A stretch of 32,083 nt of DNA from Verrucomicrobiota bacterium (lineage in GTDB: Bacteria; Verrucomicrobiota; Verrucomicrobiia; Limisphaerales; JADLHS01), in the NCBI GenBank assembly GCA_025360895.1, contig JANYBF010000375.1, positions 1 through 32,083 on the forward strand, given 5' to 3'. Made by a program: the position numbers and the translations under genes. Below, one piece after another: positions 4,607-32,083 of the stretch (its first letter is position 1; each line of letters starts with the position of its first letter). A model generated the notes under the pieces. It was not told the DNA's origin. It searched no databases and saw only the letters and a program-made list of their open reading frames with translations.

Positions 4607-5728
4607 TTATTCCTCCGGCAAAAACAGTTCCAGTTTTGCACCGCTGGCCTCGAACCGGATGAGGACGGAGTTCGGGCGAATTTCGAGGCACCGCACAATC
4701 ACATTCGTCTTGGCCAGCCGGACGCGGGTTCGATCCATCACGGCAAAAGTTTGATCGTTGATGATCGCAAGCCGCTTGGTCGCAGATCCCGATATAGTTC
4801 GAAGGATCAACTTTTCCGGTAATACGGCTGGCGGGGCATTGAGAAGGTAAGAAGGTAACGCGGCAGCCGCAGCGGCACTTTCCGTCGGCTGGGTCGCCCG
4901 TACTCCGTCCGGATCGGCGGCGTCCAGCTTGGCGGCTTCCCCGGATTTCATCCAATCCAGAACCGCATTGAAACCGTGGTGGGACTCCGCCATGAGAAAG
5001 GCGTCGAGCTGGCCGCGCGTGTAGGGATTCTCATTGATGGCTTGCTTCTGATACGCGGCCCGGCGGTCGTCCATCAAGGTGTAGGCGATTAGCTCGCAGA
5101 ACGCTTCGAGTGCATCCGGTGACAGGGTGGCTTTTCGGCTGGTCGGGAGTGTTTCATTGATCCACGCATGGCCGAACTCGTGCGCGGCCACGGCTTCGAG
5201 CTGTGACTTGTTCAAGCTGCTCAGAATGTTAATCGAGTGGATCTGCGATCTGCCGCCGATAGAATGGCTCTGGGTCGCGCCAAAAATAGCGGTACATTTC
5301 CGGGTGTAACCTGGCGATTTGAACAAGCTCTCCAAAGTGAACTGATCCACAATGGTCAGGACGATGTTGGTCTGGGGAAAACGGAGATACCGTGAGAACA
5401 GCCGGTCCAAGTCATCCCGGGCTTCCAGACAGATTTTTTTCGCCTCTTCGTCCGACCCGACCGCGTCCCGCGCACAAGCGGCGCAAAGGAAACGGCCATC
5501 TGGTAAACTGGTGAATCCCGATTTGACCGGCAAGCCGCATGCGAAGCAGTGCGCTTCCAGTTTCACGCAATCGCCGCAAATCTCAAACTTGCCGCCGCGC
5601 GCCTTGTCGTCCACGAAGTAAAACTTCCCGGTGATGGGTTTTTCACACACGCGACATGGAGTCGCCCCGGCAAAAGCAACCGCCGCCAGGCTGAGAGACA
5701 GCCAGACGGCGGTAACGAGCGCATTCAT
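4607..5728 (-). CDS. secreted LIM-like zinc-finger / DA1-like zinc metallopeptidase with a GspB-like C-terminal domain
   Basis: It has a signal peptide (MNALVTAVWLSLSLAAVAFA) and Cys-rich fingers (CRVC...CGDC...HCFAC...CAAC). The HEFGHAW metallopeptidase motif sits in a DA1-like context. The tail RLAIINDQTFAVMDRTRV...VIVRCLEI resembles GspB/PilP-type domains. Confidence 0.65.
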   Translation of the reverse strand: MNALVTAVWLSLSLAAVAFAGATPCRVCEKPITGKFYFVDDKARGGKFEICGDCVKLEAHCFACGLPVKSGFTSLPDGRFLCAACARDAVGSDEEAKKICLEARDDLDRLFSRYLRFPQTNIVLTIVDQFTLESLFKSPGYTRKCTAIFGATQSHSIGGRSQIHSINILSSLNKSQLEAVAAHEFGHAWINETLPTSRKATLSPDALEAFCELIAYTLMDDRRAAYQKQAINENPYTRGQLDAFLMAESHHGFNAVLDWMKSGEAAKLDAADPDGVRATQPTESAAAAAALPSYLLNAPPAVLPEKLILRTISGSATKRLAIINDQTFAVMDRTRVRLAKTNVIVRCLEIRPNSVLIRFEASGAKLELFLPEE

Positions 5729-5744
5729 GGTGCGCGGTGATGGA

Positions 5745-7586
5745 TTAAACCAGCGATTTAACCTTTTTGACGATGGCAGCGGCATCAATACCGAACTTTG
5801 CCAGCAATTCTTCTGCCTTGCCGGAGCGCGGGAGTTCGCGCACGGCCAGTTTATGGACTTTTACGCCCTCGCAACTGAGTTCGCCGGCGACGGCGTCGCC
5901 CAACCCACCTTCGGCGTAGTGATCCTCTACGGTGACCACCACGTTGCCGGTTTTTTGCGCGGCAGCTTTGATGACGTCCTTACCCAGGGGTTTGATGCTG
6001 TACGCGTCAACCACGGTGATGCCGATGCCTTCCTTCGCCAAAGCGTCGGCGGCTTTGAGGGCTTCGTGCAACGTTACGCCCGCGCCAACCACGGTGATTT
6101 TGTCACCGGCGTTCTGCCGGACAATCTTCGCGCCGCCGATGGGGAATGATTCGTCGTTTTTGTAAATCACCGGGGTCTTCGGGCGCGAGGTGCGGAGGAA
6201 GAAAATGCCCCGATTCAGCGCCATCACTTCGAGCAACTTCTCGGTGCTCACGGCGTCGCTTGGATAGAGAACCACGCTGCCGACCACAGCGCGCATCATG
6301 GCGAGGTCTTCGAGCGCCATTTGCGACGGACCATCTTCACCGATGCTGACACCAACGTGCGAGCCGACGAGCTTGAGGTTCGCCGTTGAAATGCCCGCGA
6401 CGCGGATTTGATCAAACGCGCGGGTGAAGAACGTGGCGAACGTGGAAGCGAACGGGACTTTGCCGCGGGTGCCAAAACCGATGGCGACGGACACCAAGGT
6501 TTGCTCCGCGATGAAACACTCGGTGGAACGCTCGGGGAATTTTTTGAAGAACTTTTCCGCGTAGGTGGAATTCTTCGTGTCGCCATCTAGGGCCACGACG
6601 CGTTGATCCGTTTCCCCGATGCGCAACAGCGCGGTGCCGTAGGCTTCGCGCGTGGCGATTAGATCACCGAGCTTGTAGCTGAGCGCGGGATAGGTGGCGG
6701 GGGAGGTGTTGTTGGTCGCCGGCCGGGCGGCCGGTGCGGGTATCGCCACGCCGATACCGGATTTGGCGCTGGGCTGCAATTCGGCAATGGCGCGCGCGGC
6801 CTCTTCCTTGTTCAACGGTTTGCCGTGCCAGTTTTCCTGATCTTGCAGGAAGGAAACCCCGGCGCCCTTATACGTCTTGGCGAGAATGCACAGCGGTTGA
6901 TCGTTGATGCCGACGCCGCTGAGGACTTCGAGAATTTCTTCGAGGTCGTGGCCGTCATCCAAAGTTTCGACGCGCCAGCCGAAGGCCTCGAAGCGCTTGC
7001 GATAAACGCCGATGTCGTGACCGAACGCGGTGGGCTGACTTTGGCCGAGGCGATTAACATCCACGATCGCGATGAGATTCTTGAGTTTGTAAGTGCCTGC
7101 GAGTGAGGCTGCTTCCCACACGGCGCCCTCGGCGATTTCGCCATCGCCGAGCAAGACATAGGTATTGTAGTCGAGCTGGTCGAGCCGGCCGGCGAGCGCC
7201 ATGCCGACGCCGACGCCCAAGCCCTGACCGAGGGACCCGGTCGCCACGTCCGCAAAGACGAGCCGCGGCGTGGGATGGCCTTCGAGATCGGAGTCAATGC
7301 GTCGGAGCTTTAGCAATTCTTCCACGGGGAATAATCCGGCTTCGGCCCATGCGGCATAAAGCAATGGCGCGGCGTGACCTTTGGACAGAATGAAGCGGTC
7401 GTTGTTGTAGTATTTCGGATTCTTCGCATCGTAGCGCATGTGGCCGAAAAACAGTGCCGCAATAACGTCCGCTGCGGAGCAGCACGAAGTGGGATGGCCG
7501 CTGCCAGCGGCAGTGGTCGAAGTAATTGAGTGGATACGCAACTGGTTGGCGATCCCCTTCAGCAATTCAATGTCAGTTTCAATCAT
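5745..7586 (-). CDS. tkt: transketolase (single-chain, about 613 aa)
   Basis: Matching motifs are AAGSGHPTSCCSAADV, GSLGQGLGVGVGMA, LGDGEIAEGAVWEA and a C-terminal Pyr/TK_C region. The start was trimmed to MIETDIELLK (ATG at 7584-7586). Confidence 0.9.
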   Translation of the reverse strand: MIETDIELLKGIANQLRIHSITSTTAAGSGHPTSCCSAADVIAALFFGHMRYDAKNPKYYNNDRFILSKGHAAPLLYAAWAEAGLFPVEELLKLRRIDSDLEGHPTPRLVFADVATGSLGQGLGVGVGMALAGRLDQLDYNTYVLLGDGEIAEGAVWEAASLAGTYKLKNLIAIVDVNRLGQSQPTAFGHDIGVYRKRFEAFGWRVETLDDGHDLEEILEVLSGVGINDQPLCILAKTYKGAGVSFLQDQENWHGKPLNKEEAARAIAELQPSAKSGIGVAIPAPAARPATNNTSPATYPALSYKLGDLIATREAYGTALLRIGETDQRVVALDGDTKNSTYAEKFFKKFPERSTECFIAEQTLVSVAIGFGTRGKVPFASTFATFFTRAFDQIRVAGISTANLKLVGSHVGVSIGEDGPSQMALEDLAMMRAVVGSVVLYPSDAVSTEKLLEVMALNRGIFFLRTSRPKTPVIYKNDESFPIGGAKIVRQNAGDKITVVGAGVTLHEALKAADALAKEGIGITVVDAYSIKPLGKDVIKAAAQKTGNVVVTVEDHYAEGGLGDAVAGELSCEGVKVHKLAVRELPRSGKAEELLAKFGIDAAAIVKKVKSLV

Positions 7587-7873: not shown

Positions 7874-9226
7874 ATGGCCCCGACCACACAGAAACAACCC
7901 GCGTTGGTCGCGGATGCGTACTTGAAAAGCTTCAGCCACTTCGAGCGCGAAGCGAAACCGCCCATTTGGATGCTCCCGTTCCGCAAAGGAGGACTCGCGC
8001 GCTTCGCGGAACTCGGCTTCCCGACATTGCAGCACGAGGATTGGCGTTTCACGAATATCGCCCCCATCGTGAAACTACCGTTCAAGCCGGTGTTTGAAGC
8101 GATGGCAGACGACCTGACGTCGGAAGCCCTCAAGAATTTTCCGTTCGCCGACTTGCCGGGTTCGCGCTTGGTATTTGTGAATGGCCATTATGCGGCGGTA
8201 CTTTCCAAAATCGCGAAGCTGCCGGCGGGCGTAACCGTGGCCAGTGTTGCCTCCGTTCTTGCAGCGGAACCAGCGTTGCTCGAAAAGTATTTCGCCCAGT
8301 CATCGCCAGCCGGCGACAACGCTTTCGACGCGCTCAATCAGGCCTTCTTCCTCGATGGCGGATTTATCCATGTGCCCGCCGGCAAGGTGGTCGAACAGCC
8401 GGTGCAGCTCATTTACGTCACTACCTCGAATCAAAATGGCGCGACGATTCAACCGCGCAACGTCATCGTCGCGGAGGCGAACAGTCAGTTGACGGTAATT
8501 GAAAGCTATGTGACAGCGGTCGGCGCGGGTTATTTCACTAACACTGTCACGGAACTCGTCGTCGGTGACAAGGCCACGGTCGAGGTGCTGAAATTTCAGG
8601 ATGAGGCGGTGGATGCGTTTCACATGGCGGCGATTCACGGGCGGTTCGGTCGGGCGAGCAACACGCGGGTTCATTCGTTCGCACTCGGGGCGAAAATCTC
8701 GCGCAACAGCATCCGCACAAACCTGGCGGGCGAGGGTTTGGAGTGCATCCTAAATGGGCTTTACCTCACGCGCGGCGAGCAATTGGCCGATCACCACATG
8801 GTGGTCGAACATGCCCAGCCGCATTGCGCCAGCCACGAATATTTCAACGGCATTTTGGATGACAAATCCAAGGGCGTCTTCCACGGCCGCATTCTGGTCC
8901 AACAACTCGCGCAGAAAACCGACGCGAAACAGACCAATAAAAACCTTCTGCTCTCCGACGACGCCACGGCCAACACCAAGCCGCAATTGGAAATTTACGC
9001 CGACGACGTAAAATGCACACACGGTGCGACCATCGGTCAGTTGAACCAGGAATCCATTTTCTATCTGCGCTCGCGCGGCATCGGGCCGGAGACGGCGCGA
9101 CGGATGTTGATTCACGCCTTCGCTGGTGAAATTATCGAGCGCGTCAAACACGAAGCCGCGCGCGAGGAATTGGACAAACTGATATGGGAGCGCCTCGAAG
9201 CAAATCCGCATTTGTCGGCGAAATAG
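7874..9226 (+). CDS. sufD: Fe-S cluster assembly protein SufD
   Basis: The C-terminal pattern is SufD-like rather than SufB-like: AQKTDAKQTNKNLLLSDDATANTKPQLEIYADDVKCTHGATIGQLNQESIFYLRSRGI. The ATG at 7874 is preferred over the TTG at 7862. Confidence 0.85.
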   Translation: MAPTTQKQPALVADAYLKSFSHFEREAKPPIWMLPFRKGGLARFAELGFPTLQHEDWRFTNIAPIVKLPFKPVFEAMADDLTSEALKNFPFADLPGSRLVFVNGHYAAVLSKIAKLPAGVTVASVASVLAAEPALLEKYFAQSSPAGDNAFDALNQAFFLDGGFIHVPAGKVVEQPVQLIYVTTSNQNGATIQPRNVIVAEANSQLTVIESYVTAVGAGYFTNTVTELVVGDKATVEVLKFQDEAVDAFHMAAIHGRFGRASNTRVHSFALGAKISRNSIRTNLAGEGLECILNGLYLTRGEQLADHHMVVEHAQPHCASHEYFNGILDDKSKGVFHGRILVQQLAQKTDAKQTNKNLLLSDDATANTKPQLEIYADDVKCTHGATIGQLNQESIFYLRSRGIGPETARRMLIHAFAGEIIERVKHEAAREELDKLIWERLEANPHLSAK

Positions 9227-9230
9227 TTTC

Positions 9231-9350
9231 AACCACGAATGCACACCAATGGACACGAATATGTTCCGACCTGCCGGGGAGGTGACGGTCGGCGATCTGG
9301 AGAGCTTCCCCATGCGATTGATTCGTGTCTATTCGTGTGCATTCGTGGTT
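9231..9350. repeat. 120-bp hairpin (MITE/REP-like) element with 30-nt inverted arms built from CACGAAT-type 10-mers
   Basis: The left arm (9231-9260, AACCACGAATGCACACCAATGGACACGAAT) matches the reverse complement of the right arm (9321-9350) at 28/30 positions. An inner stem CCGACC/GGTCGG is also present. Confidence 0.85.
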
Positions 9351-9361
9351 AGATTCTCCCC

Positions 9362-9817
9362 ATGTTCGACGATCTGAACGATCTTTATCAGCAGGTCATC
9401 CTTGACCACTGCAAGAAGCCGCGGAATTTCCATGAGATGCCGCAGGCGACCTGCTCCGCGCAAGGTCACAATCCGCTCTGTGGCGACCAGTTGAAACTTT
9501 TCCTCGCGATGGATGGCGACACGATCAAGGACGCTAGTTTTGTCGGCTCGGGCTGCTGTATCTCTAAGGCGTCGGCATCCTTGCTCACGGCGTTTGCCAA
9601 GGGTAAAACCAAAGCAGACGTGGAAAAAATGTTCACGCAAGTCCACGACATGGTGATGACGGGTAAATTTACGGGCGACGTTGGAAAGCTGGCGGTGTTC
9701 GCGGGCGTTCACAAATATCCCGCGCGCGTCAAATGCGCCATCCTTGCCTGGCACGCTGTCATGGGTGCGCTCAAGGGCGACGCCGGATCAGTGACGACGG
9801 AGTCGGAACAGATTTAA
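9362..9817 (+). CDS. sufU: SufU/IscU-type Fe-S scaffold or sulfur-transfer protein
   Basis: Three conserved Cys contexts are present: NPLCGD, GSGCCIS and ARVKCAILAW. Confidence 0.85.
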   Translation: MFDDLNDLYQQVILDHCKKPRNFHEMPQATCSAQGHNPLCGDQLKLFLAMDGDTIKDASFVGSGCCISKASASLLTAFAKGKTKADVEKMFTQVHDMVMTGKFTGDVGKLAVFAGVHKYPARVKCAILAWHAVMGALKGDAGSVTTESEQI

Positions 9818-27251: not shown

Positions 27252-29957
27252 ATGAGCAACGCACACAACTTGTTTGATACGCTGAAGCAATTCGATCTCG
27301 GCACGGGCCGGGAAGGAAATTATTACTCATTGCCCGCACTGGAAAAAGCCGAGGTCGGCCCGATCTCCAAACTGCCGGTCTCCATCCGCATCGTGCTGGA
27401 GTCGGTGCTGCGCAATTGCGACGGGAAACGCGTCAGCGAAGCCGCCGTCCGCGCGCTCGCCAATTGGAAACCAGTCGAGGAACGCACGGAGGAAATCCCG
27501 TTCGTCGTCGCGCGCATCGTATTGCAGGACTTCACCGGCGTGCCGTTGCTCGTGGACCTCGCGGCGATGCGTAGTGCCGTGGCCAAGCTCGGCAAGAATC
27601 CCAAGATCATTGAGCCCCTTGTGCCCGTGGACCTCGTGGTGGATCACTCGGTGCAAGTGGACTTCGCGGGCGGCAGTGATTCCATGCAGCAGAACTTGGA
27701 TCTGGAATTCACCCGCAATCGCGAGCGCTATCAATTCCTCAAGTGGGGCATGCAGGCGTTTGAAACCTTCAAGGTCGTCCCGCCCGGCATCGGCATCGTG
27801 CATCAGGTTAACCTCGAATATCTCGCCAAGGGCGTGCTGAGTGCAGGCGGCGTTTATTATCCGGATACACTCGTCGGCACGGACTCGCACACGACCATGA
27901 TCAATGGTCTCGGCATCGTGGGCTGGGGCGTCGGCGGCATCGAAGCGGAAGCAGGAATGTTGGGTCAACCGGTTTATTTCCTCACGCCGGACGTCGTCGG
28001 CGTGCATCTCGCTGGCGCCCTCAAGGAAGGTGTTACGGCTACCGACCTTGCGCTCACCGTCACGCAACTGCTGCGTAAAGCGAAGGTGGTCGGCAAGTTT
28101 GTTGAATTCTTTGGACCGGGCGCGACGGCGTTGCCCGTGGTGGATCGTGCGACCATTGCGAACATGGCGCCCGAATACGGCGCGACGATGGGTTTCTTCC
28201 CGATGGACGAGGAGTGCGTGAATTATCTCCGCGCCACGGGCCGCAGCAATGGCGATTGCAAGCTCTACGAGAACTACTACCGCGCGCAGGGTTTGTGGGG
28301 CATTCCGCAACTCGGGGAAATCGAATACTCCCAACTCATCGAACTCGATCTCGCCACGGTGAGGCCCAGCGTGGCGGGGCCAAAACGTCCGCAGGATCGG
28401 ATCGAGTTGCCAGACATGCGGCGCGAATTTCTCGGCGCGTTCCAGCGGCCCGTCACGGAAAATGGTTTTGGCAGGACGCGCAAAGATATTTCCAGGTCCG
28501 TCAAGCTGGAGATGACGAACAAGAAAAAAGTCAAGGTCGGCACCGGCTCGGTTCTGATCGCGGCCATCACGAGTTGCACGAACACGTCAAATCCCAGCGT
28601 GATGCTGGCGGCGGGTTTGCTCGCGAAGAAGGCGGTGGAAAAAGGACTAACGGTGAATCCAGCGGTAAAGGCCTCGCTCGCGCCGGGCTCCCGCGTCGTC
28701 ACGGATTATCTCAAAAAGACGAACTTGCAGAAGTATCTCAACAAACTGCGCTTCAATCTCGTCGGCTACGGCTGCACGACGTGCATCGGCAACTCCGGCC
28801 CGCTCGACGCGAACATCGAAGACGCCGTCGTGAAGAACGATTTCGTCGCGGCCAGCGTGTTGTCCGGCAACCGCAACTTCGAAGCTCGGGTGCATCAGAA
28901 CATCAAGGCCAACTTCCTCATGTCGCCACCGCTCGTGGTTGCCTTCGCCTTGGCGGGTCGCGTGGACATTGATATGAGTTGCGAACCGCTCGGCACGGAC
29001 AAGGACGGCGCACCCGTTTATCTCGCCGACCTCTGGCCCACGCTCCAGGAAGTCCGTGAGGCGATGGAATCCGCGCTCAAACCAGAAGTCTTTCGCAAGC
29101 TCTACAAGGACTTTGCCGCCCAGAATCCCAAGTGGAATGAAATCCCATCGAGTGTTGGCAACGTGTACGAGTGGGATCGCAAGTCCACCTACATTCAACA
29201 ACCGCCATTTTTCGAAAACTTCTCGATGACACCCGGCAGTGTCCAGCCCATCACCGGCGCCCGCGCGCTCGGCATTTTTGGCGACAGCGTGACGACCGAT
29301 CACATCTCGCCCGCCGGTGCGATCAAGAAAAGTTCGCCGGCTGGAAAGTTCCTCCAGGAAAACGGCGTCGGAGCGGTGGACTTCAACAGTTACGGTTCGC
29401 GGCGCGGCAACGACCGGATCATGACCCGCGGCACGTTCGCCAACGTGCGCATCAAGAACCTCATGCTCGGCGGCGAGGAAGGCGGCAACACGCTCGGACC
29501 GGATGGCCAGAAGACTTCCATCTACGACGCGTCCATCGCCTACCAAAAAGCCGGCACGCCGCTCATTGTGATTGCCGGACAGGAATACGGCACGGGTTCA
29601 TCCCGTGACTGGGCCGCGAAAGGCACGAACCTGCTTGGTGTGAAAGCCGTCGTCGCACAGAGCTTCGAACGCATTCATCGCAGTAATCTCGTCGGCATGG
29701 GCGTGCTGCCGTTGCAATTCAAGGATGGCACGACCGCGCAAACCCTCAAGCTTGACGGCACCGAGACCTATGACATCGTTGGCCTCGACGAAAACATCAA
29801 GCCGCAACAAGACCTGACGCTCAAGATCACGCGCCAGGATGGCAGCGTGGACGAGGTCAGCGTCCGTTGCCGCATTGATACGCCGATCGAGATTGACTAC
29901 TACCAGCACGGCGGAATTTTGCTGTATGTGCTGCGGCAGCTGGTGGCGAAGGCGTAG
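27252..29957 (+). CDS. acnA: aconitate hydratase A
   Basis: The 901-aa protein has the cluster-ligand contexts [10 protein letters not shown] and [11 protein letters not shown], plus [12 protein letters not shown]. Confidence 0.95.
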
Positions 29958-29961
29958 TCCC

Positions 29962-30032
29962 CGGAGCGCCGGTCTCCCGACCCGGCGCGAAGCGAATCCG
30001 AACAACGCGCCGGGTCGGAGACCGGCGCTCCG
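29962..30032. repeat. 71-nt near-perfect palindrome (27-28-nt arms, 16-nt loop) 5 nt after the acnA stop
   Basis: The left arm CGGAGCGCCGGTCTCCCGACCCGGCGCG (29962-29989) pairs with the right arm CGCGCCGGGTCGGAGACCGGCGCTCCG (30006-30032), leaving a single bulged C. No T-tract follows. Confidence 0.9.
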
Positions 30033-30063
30033 AAAGCGAAAACAACGTGAACTTGGAGACCAA

Positions 30064-32049
30064 ATGAAACTGACAAAGTTCCGAGTGGAAAACTTCCGCT
30101 CTATCCGAGACTCAGGTTGGGTCGAACTGGACGACATTGCCGTCATCGTCGGCAAGAATGAATCCGGCAAGACATCCTTGCTCAAGGCGCTCTGGAAACT
30201 GAACCCGTTCCACAAGGTCGGCTACGAAATCGACAGAGAATTCCCGACCGGGCGGCGCAAAGAGAAATCAGGCGACCAGGTTGTCGTGACGGCCCATTTC
30301 GCACTTTCACCAGATGAGACGCAAGCGTTGGCGGCACTCCACGACAGCGCCAAAGGAATCACTGAGGTTTCAGTTCAGCGCAACTATGATGGCGACTACA
30401 TTTACAACTTCTTCCCAAGTTCGCCAGCCGTTGACCACGATGTAAAGTGGGTGGTTGGTGTCATCAAGGATAACCTTTCAGAACTTGAGTCGCCGTGCAG
30501 CGAGCACTTCAAGCAGCAATACCAAGCGGCGCTCAACAAATACATCGCAGAGGTTGAAGGTGGAGACGGGAGCAAGGTTGCTGTTGCCAAGGCGGCGAGT
30601 TTGAAGAGCCAATTCCCCTCCTTTGTACAGCAGGGCTACGACAATCAGCGCGTCCAGGAACAACAGCAGCGTATGGATGAAGCAGTAAAGGAGATTCAGG
30701 CAACGCCATGGCGGAAAGTCGCGGACGAACTTCAGAAACGTCTGCCTGTGTTTGTTTATATGGACGACTACCGCATTTTCAGCGGCGCGGCTCAACTTGA
30801 TGAAGTTTTGACTCGGAAGCAGCGGAAGCAAACCAAGAGCGAAGACGAGACCATCATGCTGATAATGGAGATGGCGGGACTGAACCTAGACGAAGAAGTT
30901 GAAAAGGGTAATCAGGAAGACAAACGCCAGCGGATGATGGACATGAACGACGCCAGCCAGACGCTGACGAATCAAATCGCCAACCGATGGTCGCAGAAGC
31001 GTTACGAAGTCATGTTTCAGGCTGACGGCCAGCACTTCGAGACTTTCGTTAAGGACGCGGACCAAAAGGCACTCGTTCCTTTGGAGGATCGCTCCAAGGG
31101 TTTCCAGTGGTTCTTTTCGTTCGACATGACATTCATGTATGAGACGCAAGGCAGCTTTGCCCATGCGGTCATCCTTCTCGATGAACCCGGACTGCATCTG
31201 CACGCAGCCGCACAGCGTGATCTCTTGAGGCGGATGAGTGCTTACGCCGAGAAAAACCAACTCATCTACTCGACTCACCTGCCCTTCATGATTGATTTCG
31301 CCCGACTCGATAACATCTACGTTTGTGAAGAGAATGCATCGGAAGGAAGTCGGGTTCACAAGGATTGGGCGACCGCAGATAAGGACGCCCGGTTTACGCT
31401 TCAAGCCGCACTTGGTTTATCATGGAGCCAATCGCTGTTTGTGGGGCGGTTCAACTTGGTGGTGGAAGGCGTGACCGACTACTGGTTCCTTACAACCATC
31501 TCAACACTACTAAAAGATTCAGGCGAACTAGGTCTGGACGAACAACTCGTCGTCACACCTGCTGGCGGGGCCAGCAAGGTGGCGTATGTCGGGACCATTC
31601 TTCACGGCCAAGAACTCAACGTGGCGGTGTTGCTCGACTCGGATAAAGAGGGAGACGATGCCTTCAAACAGCTTGTGCATAGTTGGATTCTCAAAGAGCG
31701 GCTCGTTCTTCGCGTCGGACAGATTCTTGGTGCCGCTGGAAACCGCGCACTCGAAGACCTGTTTGACGAAGCTTACTATGTCGCACAGACGCAGTCAGCT
31801 TACGCGAAAGAACTAACGGGCAAGAAACTGACGCTCGCTGCCAAGCCGGGGCTTTCAGTTGTTGAGAGAGTTGAGGAAGCATTGAAGGCGGCTGGCATTC
31901 CTGACTTCAACAAGGGGCGGGTTGCCAAACGCATTATGGAGGACTTGGCGAAGAAAAAGCTTTCCGATCTTCCACCCACGACGGTTGGAAACTTCAAGAA
32001 AGTCATTGCTGCGGCGAATGCTCTTAACGTTGGATGGCGGAAAGCCTGA
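30064..32049 (+). CDS. OLD-family nuclease: ABC-type ATPase with a long helical insertion fused to a Toprim domain (661 aa)
   Basis: Motifs by residue: Walker A GKNESGKT (aa 30-37), signature-like SKGFQWFFSF (344-353), Walker B VILLDEPGLHLH (369-380), STH (403-405), Toprim glutamate NLVVEGVTD (464-472) and acidic cluster LLDSDKEGDD (523-532). A GGAGA Shine-Dalgarno sequence lies 4 nt upstream of the ATG at 30064. The upstream extension in the ORF track (from 29839) overlaps acnA and the palindrome and was rejected. Confidence 0.85.
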   Translation: MKLTKFRVENFRSIRDSGWVELDDIAVIVGKNESGKTSLLKALWKLNPFHKVGYEIDREFPTGRRKEKSGDQVVVTAHFALSPDETQALAALHDSAKGITEVSVQRNYDGDYIYNFFPSSPAVDHDVKWVVGVIKDNLSELESPCSEHFKQQYQAALNKYIAEVEGGDGSKVAVAKAASLKSQFPSFVQQGYDNQRVQEQQQRMDEAVKEIQATPWRKVADELQKRLPVFVYMDDYRIFSGAAQLDEVLTRKQRKQTKSEDETIMLIMEMAGLNLDEEVEKGNQEDKRQRMMDMNDASQTLTNQIANRWSQKRYEVMFQADGQHFETFVKDADQKALVPLEDRSKGFQWFFSFDMTFMYETQGSFAHAVILLDEPGLHLHAAAQRDLLRRMSAYAEKNQLIYSTHLPFMIDFARLDNIYVCEENASEGSRVHKDWATADKDARFTLQAALGLSWSQSLFVGRFNLVVEGVTDYWFLTTISTLLKDSGELGLDEQLVVTPAGGASKVAYVGTILHGQELNVAVLLDSDKEGDDAFKQLVHSWILKERLVLRVGQILGAAGNRALEDLFDEAYYVAQTQSAYAKELTGKKLTLAAKPGLSVVERVEEALKAAGIPDFNKGRVAKRIMEDLAKKKLSDLPPTTVGNFKKVIAAANALNVGWRKA

Positions 32050-32056
32050 TGCGATT

Positions 32057-32083
32057 GGAGCGCCGGTCTCCTGACCCGGCTCG
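32057..32083. repeat. second copy of the GGAGCGCCGGTCTCC-type repeat arm, truncated by the window end
   Basis: GGAGCGCCGGTCTCCTGACCCGGCTCG matches 29963-29989 at 25/27 positions. It begins 8 nt after the OLD-family stop codon. Confidence 0.8.

Follow-up and report, generated by a model that had tools for sequence, protein, structure and literature searches.

We describe here a predicted stand-alone OLD-family nuclease gene of a Verrucomicrobiota bacterium (GCA_025360895.1, contig JANYBF010000375.1). The whole 32,083-nt stretch that was analyzed, positions 1-32,083 of the forward strand, is referred to as the window. The OLD gene occupies positions 30064-32049 on its forward strand, encodes 661 aa plus the stop codon, and was assigned from profile matches, conserved residues, a structure model, and an alignment with Old of phage P2. 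We consider it, with a probability of about 0.8, a stand-alone OLD-family nuclease gene that is an accessory gene in a locus of repetitive extragenic palindromic (REP) sequences and their REP-associated tyrosine transposase (RAYT); the palindromes beside it would be neither part of the OLD gene nor a cassette site. An original prediction, made from the sequence alone, had read the region as a single-gene ABC-ATPase/Toprim cassette bracketed by its own repeat. The protein family in that prediction was borne out, and the "cassette bracketed by its own repeat" gives way to an accessory gene lodged in a REP/RAYT locus.

Domain architecture and catalytic residues

Profile searches with the 661-aa protein returned Pfam AAA_15 (1.4e-23) and AAA_21 (2e-14), and SMC_N, RecF, and Rad50 N-termini matched the N-terminal lobe of its ATPase. 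The best PADLOC model was Old (1.2e-24, 85 bits), which spanned aa 366-536 including the Toprim domain; it was followed by the AriA model, which matched the generic ATPase only, and then by GajA models, down to 4e-20. No NCBIfam equivalog came near its cutoff. Among solved structures, the best sequence match was Ts OLD (6P74, 3.6e-8), and the hhalign comparison with P2 Old gave a probability of 97.6%. The Pfam, PADLOC, Ts OLD, and P2 Old results agree with the ABC-ATPase/Toprim protein of the OLD family that had been proposed.

The original prediction had also considered a fused, PARIS-like AriA-AriB protein, which would sense anti-restriction proteins and cleave tRNA. The AriA model indeed matched the ATPase half (1.7e-24) and the AriAB model matched as well (3e-15), AriA chains were found among the solved-structure matches (2e-4), and one relative is embedded in a type I restriction-modification (R-M) operon. 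However, the AriA match was limited to the generic AAA_15 ATPase (aa 1-410), and the best AriAB stretch covered only aa 366-452 with 54 bits, compared to the 85 bits of Old. Moreover, the Toprim domain had no DUF4435 match, and Old, Ts OLD, and GajA matched better, with matches extending across Toprim. The PARIS-like reading was given up on these grounds, and we regard it as scarcely credible.

The AlphaFold (AF2) model (pLDDT 90.2, pTM 0.69) displayed an ABC head split by a helical insertion, followed by a Toprim domain and a helical tail. When the full model was compared with the PDB by Foldseek, as had been suggested with the original prediction, Ts OLD came first (3e-14) and GajA second (6e-12); PtuA, retron ATPases, and SMC heads were further matches, and all the matches were at 12-15% identity. 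On the forward strand, the N-terminal lobe of the ABC ATPase (aa 1-119, 30064-30420) was delimited by invariant residues and profile matches and carries the Walker A motif G30-K-N-E-S-G-K36-T. The helical insertion (aa ~120-310, 30421-30993) consists of model helices 127-226 and 245-305, which lie between ATPase strands; it had been predicted correctly, with the somewhat different limits of aa 130-340. In the C-terminal lobe of the ATPase (aa ~311-435, 30994-31368), defined by conservation and by the alignment of Ts OLD 271-383, are found S344-K-G346-F-Q348, D373/E374, H380, and H405. The Toprim domain (aa ~460-561, 31441-31746), supported by PADLOC, conservation, and the P2 Old alignment, contains E468 and D472 (VVEGVTD) and D525-S-D527. 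Conservation and models also define the C-terminal helical region (aa ~562-661, 31747-32046), with E564/D565 in its first helix and K617 in a later one; the predicted helical tail was thus recovered, although with ~100 aa instead of about 120 aa. Judged from the model, the helical insertion would be the counterpart of the OLD dimerisation domain in the architecture described for Ts OLD and GajA (PMC7049728, PMC10568477).

Conservation was assessed over 84 aligned relatives, the most distant at 26% identity. The residues of Walker A (G30, N32, G35, and K36), the signature-like SxGxQ motif (S344, G346, and Q348), Walker B (D373/E374), the D-loop (H380), and the H-loop (H405) were invariant or nearly so, in accordance with the Walker A, signature-like, Walker B, and H-loop motifs noted originally. 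The same was true of E468, D472, D525, D527, E564, D565, and K617. The column of K617, which stands at +53 from E564, holds Lys in 76 of the 84 relatives and Arg in 5, and position +7 after E564 is a Tyr in the window protein. In the hhalign alignment with P2 Old, the ATPase residues D373, H380, and H405 were paired with D299, H306, and H332, respectively, and the Toprim residues E468, D472, D525, and D527 with E398, E402, D453, and D455. Seven experimentally defined catalytic residues of P2 Old therefore align with invariant columns, and mutation has shown that all of them are needed for killing (PMC7049728). The ABC ATPase and the two-metal Toprim site are intact and under strong purifying selection. 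By its sequence, the window gene encodes an OLD-family ATPase-Toprim protein, a predicted nuclease, in which all the motifs for ATP hydrolysis and for a two-metal nuclease are conserved.

Distribution and neighbourhoods of the clade

The window protein itself had no exact match on any other contig on record, but its clade is large and tightly conserved. Clusters of 660-690 aa at 58-90% identity numbered more than 100, from Verrucomicrobiota, Pedosphaera, Brocadiaceae, other taxa, and metagenomes, and 1010 clusters (50% identity) were recovered at E<=1e-30, with full-length relatives down to about 28% identity. Plasmids of Klebsiella, Enterobacter, and others gave 104 records, of which the listed best matches were ~33% identical and annotated as "AAA family ATPase"; on the one enterobacterial plasmid examined (L219), the OLD homologue lies among toxin-antitoxin genes. 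Phage genomes were nearly devoid of the gene, with a single full-length match at 29% identity.

Many of the neighbourhoods, which are numbered L001 onwards as are the other stretches compared, contain defence or transfer genes. In one type I R-M operon (L004/L005), a homologue has hsdS on one side and a split hsdR on the other, and in L001 a Dam-like methylase and SacI/Mrr-like endonuclease of a type II R-M system come after the homologue. The homologue of L211-214 shares an island with a type III Res, GmrSD, an N6/N4 methylase, and an Mrr-like nuclease, and that of L215-218 is found past an SNF2 helicase and before genes including a PDC-M14A candidate and DUF1156. Conjugative elements carry two more, one with TrwC/TrwB and beside a Dnd system (L220) and the other near TrwB (L221). 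The remaining ones are near Fic/RadC (L208) and near AAA_25 (L209). The clade distribution is accessory, mobile, and defence-associated.

In about eleven homologue neighbourhoods, neither a shared partner nor a UvrD-like helicase nor a reverse transcriptase was found, and a search for a conserved neighbour revealed no mutual similarity among the proteins downstream of the OLD homologues. Since there is no common neighbour, the protein was placed as a stand-alone OLD, class 1 by context, as the original prediction had supposed. By analogy with characterized systems, it appears to behave as a self-sufficient and horizontally mobile gene with a presumed defence function.

A cellular role other than defence, such as DNA repair or cell-cycle control, was considered on the model of the archaeal OLD-family ATPase Cran1. 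A housekeeping role has been shown for an OLD-family protein (PMC12796447), and the window gene stands behind a core metabolic gene, among housekeeping genes. Nevertheless, its distribution is patchy (80 of 80 related loci lack it), it is found again and again in R-M operons, defence islands, conjugative elements, and plasmids, and its nuclease residues are fully conserved. A non-defence role is thus very improbable.

Two of these neighbourhoods have further details of their own. The type I operon (L004 3644-12976, and L005) has the order hsdM, DUF1016/YhcG, hsdS, OLD, and hsdR; its OLD is 65% identical to that of the window and has its start codon 3 nt past hsdS, and its split hsdR consists of an N-terminal piece of 110 aa and a remainder of 684 aa. 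In L215 (8001-8981; also L216-L218), the start of the PADLOC candidate PDC-M14A (1.1e-16) overlaps the stop codon of the OLD gene (63% identical), and past it come a 558-aa protein, a GGACT/AIG2-like protein, and DUF1156.

The acnA locus and acquisition of the gene

The core gene that anchors the locus is acnA (aconitate hydratase, 901 aa; open reading frame at 27252-29957, forward strand), and the OLD gene lies directly 3' to it. Position 29958, from which the original prediction had counted, is the first base past the acnA stop codon. The OLD reading frame starts with ATG at 30064 and ends with TGA at 32047-32049. A longer mechanical reading frame from 29839 was rejected as a spurious extension overlapping acnA, because the homologues all begin at MKLTKF. 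The gene has its own Shine-Dalgarno-like sequence, as predicted; GGAGA (30055-30059, forward strand) was read from the sequence 4 nt before the ATG and is kept in L006.

The locus was compared with 80 acnA loci with 10-kb flanks from GTDB species representatives, in which the C-terminal half of acnA was 69-91% identical to that of the window. All but a few of them are labelled Verrucomicrobiota (Opitutaceae, Limisphaerales, and Chthoniobacterales). An OLD homologue was present in 0 of these 80 related loci, and empty sites could be recognised. In L012 (acnA 86%) and L062, the next gene directly after acnA is a homologue of the convergent gene found past the insertion in L006, and in L008 (acnA 91%) acnA, one palindrome copy, and a convergent gene follow one another. 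L006/L007 (GCA_043733105.1) carries a 90%-identical OLD at the matching site, and both junctions are homologous to those of the window. Because the gene is absent from the 80 acnA loci and empty sites are recognisable, it was acquired; the recipient was an ancestor shared with L006, in which the gene settled at the 3' flank of acnA. The window and L006 copies of OLD show 81% nucleotide identity (56% at third positions), and acnA, compared over a 207-nt fragment, shows 84% (72% at third positions). The two OLD copies are thus about as diverged as acnA, which indicates an old and shared insertion; the horizontal acquisition of the original prediction holds, but not as a recent event.

The low GC content that had been noted was also correct, at 52.8% compared with 59.3% for acnA, and was the lowest among the 28 window genes (z about -2). 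However, the GC content at third codon positions (GC3) was 0.616 (z about -0.9), which is inside the window range (mean 0.666, standard deviation 0.056), with acnA having the highest value. The deficit sits at second codon positions (0.358), and the protein is rich in Lys, Glu, Gln, and Asp. Since the drop is at second positions while GC3 is normal, it mostly reflects amino-acid composition. Composition was set aside as proof of transfer, being weak evidence for a foreign origin.

Several metagenome-assembled genomes among the compared loci (L008, L010, L014, L022, and others) are labelled Bifidobacterium, Klebsiella, Akkermansia, or Heliobacteriaceae. Since their acnA shares 82-91% identity with that of the window, these labels look like mis-assignments.

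REP elements and the RAYT locus

Between acnA and the OLD gene lies the 71-nt palindrome that had been described originally (29962-30032, unstranded). It consists of a left arm (29962-29989), a 16-nt spacer, and a right arm (30006-30032) with one bulged base, and it has a perfect 16-nt core, ~27-nt arms, and a folding energy of -67.6 kcal/mol (z = -7.5 versus shuffles). By its fold, its L008 orthologue, and its dispersed copies, it is a REPIN, a doublet of inverted REP units. A third arm, in left-arm orientation, is a single REP unit (32057-32083, unstranded) that is 25/27 identical to 29963-29989 and is cut off by the window end; the reported identity stands, and the arm begins 7 nt past the OLD stop codon, not 8 nt. 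The 15-mer REP core occurs only at these three sites of the window, with 0.16 expected by chance. L006 has a matching REP unit at an equal distance from the OLD stop codon, followed by a gene for a 332-aa membrane protein and then by a right arm.

A search for the arm (<=6 substitutions) in 1.4 Mb of related loci returned only the orthologous site of L008 (11361-11430), a single REPIN copy with one compensatory pair. This L008-only match first suggested a locus-specific repeat, which was overturned by a metagenome scan: the 24-nt arm was found in at least 120 stretches, and among the 120 listed the acnA locus was present in 1 and the OLD gene in none. Of 131 arms, 54 were paired with an inverted one in doublets of 71-84 nt, in which the arms are conserved and the spacers vary; the rest were singlets. 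Arms lay inside long reading frames (>=150 aa) in 66% of the cases versus 82% for random 24-mers, a crude comparison that is uninformative in GC-rich DNA. An Rfam search of the palindrome region returned no family, and chance miRNA-like hairpin matches were far under threshold.

The same repeat is linked to a RAYT gene. In L145, a 270-aa reading frame (5563-6375) with the HUH motif MPNHVHVLV and a Pfam Y1_Tnp score of 26.3 bits (cutoff 23) lies past acnA between arms at 5527 and 6358. In L011 and L022, RAYT orthologues (68% and 60% identical) are located directly past acnA, and each is flanked by a lineage variant of the REP that shares the GGAGCGCCG...CGGCGCTCC ends. No RAYT gene was found within the window. 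The arrangement is that of the REP/REPIN-RAYT systems described by Bertels and Rainey (PMC3116915, PMC3337134; see also PMC5581495): inverted ~27-nt imperfect palindromes form doublets with conserved arms and variable spacers, doublets and singlets occur at many loci, and units flank one Y1/IS200-like transposase gene at a conserved site. RAYTs are known as single-copy, vertically inherited genes (PMC5581495). Three features differ from known REPs. The unit head is GGAG here, compared with GTAG or CGTC in most REPs (PMC3733652), the 24-nt arm is identical across many metagenomes of varied environments, and the RAYT genes carry an in-frame REPIN.

The flanking palindromes are therefore REP/REPIN elements of the RAYT locus of this lineage and not cassette ends. 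The palindrome is resident at the acnA flank, and L008 keeps one without OLD. The cassette reading was abandoned, because at least 120 copies occur elsewhere, RAYT genes stand between such arms (L145, L011, and L022), and OLD copies elsewhere lack the repeat. The original prediction had itself named the occurrence of the repeat at many unrelated sites as the finding that would make the bracketing incidental, and this is what was observed. An integron attC site was considered as well and rejected; the palindrome ends in GGAGCGCC...GGCGCTCC without core sites (RYYYAAC ... GTTRRRY), and linkage to RAYT was found instead.

The REPs might still have taken an active part, if the gene entered, or moves, by recombination or RAYT action at the flanking units. 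A single REPIN stands at the empty site of L008, compared with a REPIN and a further REP arm at the filled site; the window and L006 agree at both OLD-REP junctions; and this is where the lineage has its RAYT locus. However, OLD homologues elsewhere (80% and 65% identical) have no such repeat in their flanks, and the OLD gene was in 0 of the 120 REP-bearing stretches listed. The GGAG heads of both units beside OLD point inward, so that OLD is flanked by two REP units rather than contained in one. REPs build up in intergenic DNA anyway (PMC3116915). Furthermore, there are no attC core sites, and no integrase was found among the window genes examined. REP-mediated capture is thus decidedly unlikely as the route of entry; REP-assisted recombination at a hotspot in the acnA flank is possible, without specific support.

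Several observations on the repeats themselves were made. The RAYT home at the acnA 3' flank comprises L145 5527-6358, L011 2008-2877, and L022 11363-12307 (acnA 80-87% identical); at that flank L008 (11361-11430) keeps the REPIN alone, and the window and L006 hold OLD. The inner REP sequence varies by lineage while the outer GGAGCGCCG/CGGCGCTCC ends are fixed. The RAYT orthologues carry a complete, in-frame, lineage-specific REPIN (L145 6054-6126, L011 2576-2648, and L022 11967-12043), which reads AERRSPTRLVDESATNEPGQRPALQ in L145; it is unusual for a transposase gene to host, and apparently translate, its own substrate repeat at a conserved position. The identical 24-nt arm was found in many metagenomes (L088-L207, e.g., L099, L106 at 6049 and 6255, and L114), a spread that is unusually broad for a REP family. 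Past a solo arm, several contigs show a second conserved sequence (CGTTTCC...AATCAAAG...AATAAAGGTG), which hints at another composite repeat. The 15-mer REP core GGAGCGCCGGTCTCC occurs once within the acnA coding sequence of L012 (1012-1026), probably by chance. Finally, the window holds a different palindrome of 120 nt (9231-9350; 30-nt arms, 93% complementary, AACCACGAATGCACACC...), which fills the gap between reading frames ending at 9226 and starting at 9362 and is unrelated to the REP of the OLD gene.

Proposed mode of action and points against it

The protein is envisaged as an ABC-type ATPase head that is split by a helical dimerisation insertion and fused to a Toprim nuclease with a helical C-terminal lid. 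By analogy with Ts OLD and GajA, it would dimerise or oligomerise through the helical insertion, and ATP binding and hydrolysis at the head would gate the Toprim site. Metal A would be held by E468, D525, and D527 and metal B by D472 and E564, and K617 would serve as the transition-state lysine. Upon phage infection, the nuclease would cut nucleic acid, so that phage replication stops or the infected cell aborts. Both the ATPase and the nuclease are required in vivo in P2 Old (PMC7049728) and Vc OLD (PMC12392090). DNA seems the likeliest substrate, at about even odds, and would be nicked or processively cleaved like the DNA targets of Ts, Vc, and Bp OLD; it is favoured because the nuclease module resembles the DNA-cleaving Bp/GajA type. 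Cleavage of tRNA would be the second and less probable choice, by analogy with P2 Old, which causes abortive infection through cleavage of the tRNA anticodon stem (PMC12445682).

Some results weigh against a stand-alone defence nuclease. The Pfam OLD-like_TOPRIM match was only 0.0023, under its threshold, and the identity to characterised OLDs is only 12-15%. When the nuclease module was searched in isolation (aa 440-661, pLDDT 91), the Foldseek matches were weak (Ts OLD 0.012 and GajA 0.059), and neither Bp nor Xcc OLD was matched in that search. To our knowledge, no experiment has been performed on any clade member. At the locus, the genes upstream in the window are housekeeping genes and not a defence island. 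A sigma-70 promoter and intrinsic-terminator scan of 29700-30300 gave no match, and no promoter-like site was found between acnA and the OLD gene (31 nt from the REPIN to the Shine-Dalgarno sequence); therefore, transcription has to be assumed either to read through the hairpin from acnA or to start at an unconventional promoter. A role outside defence is known for one archaeal OLD class (PMC12796447). Only 34 nt of the window lie past the OLD stop codon, so that a partner gene in the source genome is possible, and in L006 a membrane-protein gene follows OLD at 57 nt.

The last point leads to a possible two-gene system, in which OLD would work with the next gene, the 332-aa protein of L006 with 5-6 transmembrane segments acting as a membrane effector or anchor. 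In both L006 and L007 this gene begins 57 nt past the OLD stop codon with its own Shine-Dalgarno sequence, both OLD and the 332-aa gene are missing at the empty sites L012 and L062, and its GC content of 48% and GC3 of 0.51 are foreign to the locus. The window and L006 also show the matching REP arm past OLD, and the 332-aa gene probably stands just past the window end, too. However, no related protein was found in about ten other neighbourhoods of the clade, and the 332-aa protein matched no Pfam or PADLOC family. Moreover, in L006 a left and a right REP arm enclose it, so that it fills the slot held by RAYT in L145, which suggests a separate insertion. A two-gene system is therefore unlikely, and the stand-alone nuclease is preferred. 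As to its exact position, the 332-aa reading frame (L006 2315-3313; also L007 2172-3170) lies exactly between the left REP arm, plus the spacer start, and the right REP arm.

Significance of the clade

Within the widespread OLD defence family, no branch is understood less well than the stand-alone nucleases. A phenotype of any kind is known for P2 Old, Vc OLD, and YbjD alone, and the activities differ: P2 Old cuts tRNA, Vc OLD nicks DNA, and Ts OLD degrades DNA. The clade described here is large (about 1000 clusters) and strongly conserved, and it has no characterised member, so that one tested representative would be informative. Such a representative could show whether a class 2-like nuclease module defends without GajB, and what its substrate is. 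For annotation, genes of this kind that are called "AAA family ATPase" are OLD nucleases, and GC-rich palindromes around an accessory gene of Verrucomicrobiota are likely REPINs and not cassette ends.

Comparison with known defence systems

The window protein shares with the class 1 OLDs (P2 Old, Ts OLD 6P74, Vc OLD, and YbjD) a single polypeptide made of an ABC ATPase, a helical insertion, and a Toprim domain, and its relatives are likewise without a dedicated partner gene. Walker A and B, the D-loop and H-loop His, the metal A residues (E and DxD), and the first metal B acid all align. However, it is only ~15% identical to these proteins and 75-130 residues longer. Its SxGxQ motif is well conserved in the clade, whereas the signature is degenerate in class 1 (PMC7049728), and many relatives lie in defence islands or R-M operons, which differs from class 1 as published (PMC10568477). 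Ts OLD has no C-terminal helical domain (PMC7049728), in contrast to the ~100-residue helical C-terminal region of the window protein. In class 1, the catalytic basic residue stands 7 positions past the metal-B Glu (Ts E480/R487 and P2 E543/K550; PMC7049728), whereas the conserved basic residue of the window protein is at +53.

In motif spacing and secondary structure, the C-terminal part looks more like class 2, although the fold search with the isolated module, which was to decide between a class 1-like and a class 2-like tail, gave weak matches only. GajA and Bp OLD have a helical domain past Toprim with a long final helix, as does the window protein in its model. In Bp OLD, a helical domain of 90 residues starts with the metal-B residue E508, and the catalytic K562 comes 54 residues later (PMC6755086); in the window protein, the putative metal-B Glu is also in the first helix and the Glu-to-Lys spacing is 53. 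Unlike Gabija, no UvrD/PcrA-like GajB gene adjoins any sampled relative. The class 3 OLDs, which are retron effectors with an adjoining reverse transcriptase and msr/msd RNA, differ in that no reverse transcriptase is found upstream in the window or in the neighbourhoods of the relatives; the NCBIfam retron Eco8 effector model scored 34 bits against a cutoff of 250, and the Rfam scan returned nothing. PARIS, Septu PtuA, AbiLi, and the retron ATPases share the AAA_15-type ABC head with a coiled or helical insertion, but the nuclease of the window protein is an OLD-type Toprim in cis, and not the DUF4435 AriB of PARIS or the HNH PtuB of Septu.

From sequence and model, the clade would be class 1 by context, with a nuclease module that has a class 2-like tail. 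A bolder proposal, which we hold as doubtful, is that the ~665-aa clade forms a distinct OLD class, with a class 2-type nuclease module that is solo and helicase-free, or that RAYT/REP loci are landing pads that collect accessory genes. Such a class would be spread by conjugative elements; from its repeated seats in R-M operons and defence islands, it might step in once restriction has failed. Taken as a stand-alone OLD nuclease, the window gene belongs to a known family, within a large clade with a class 2-like tail in a solo context.

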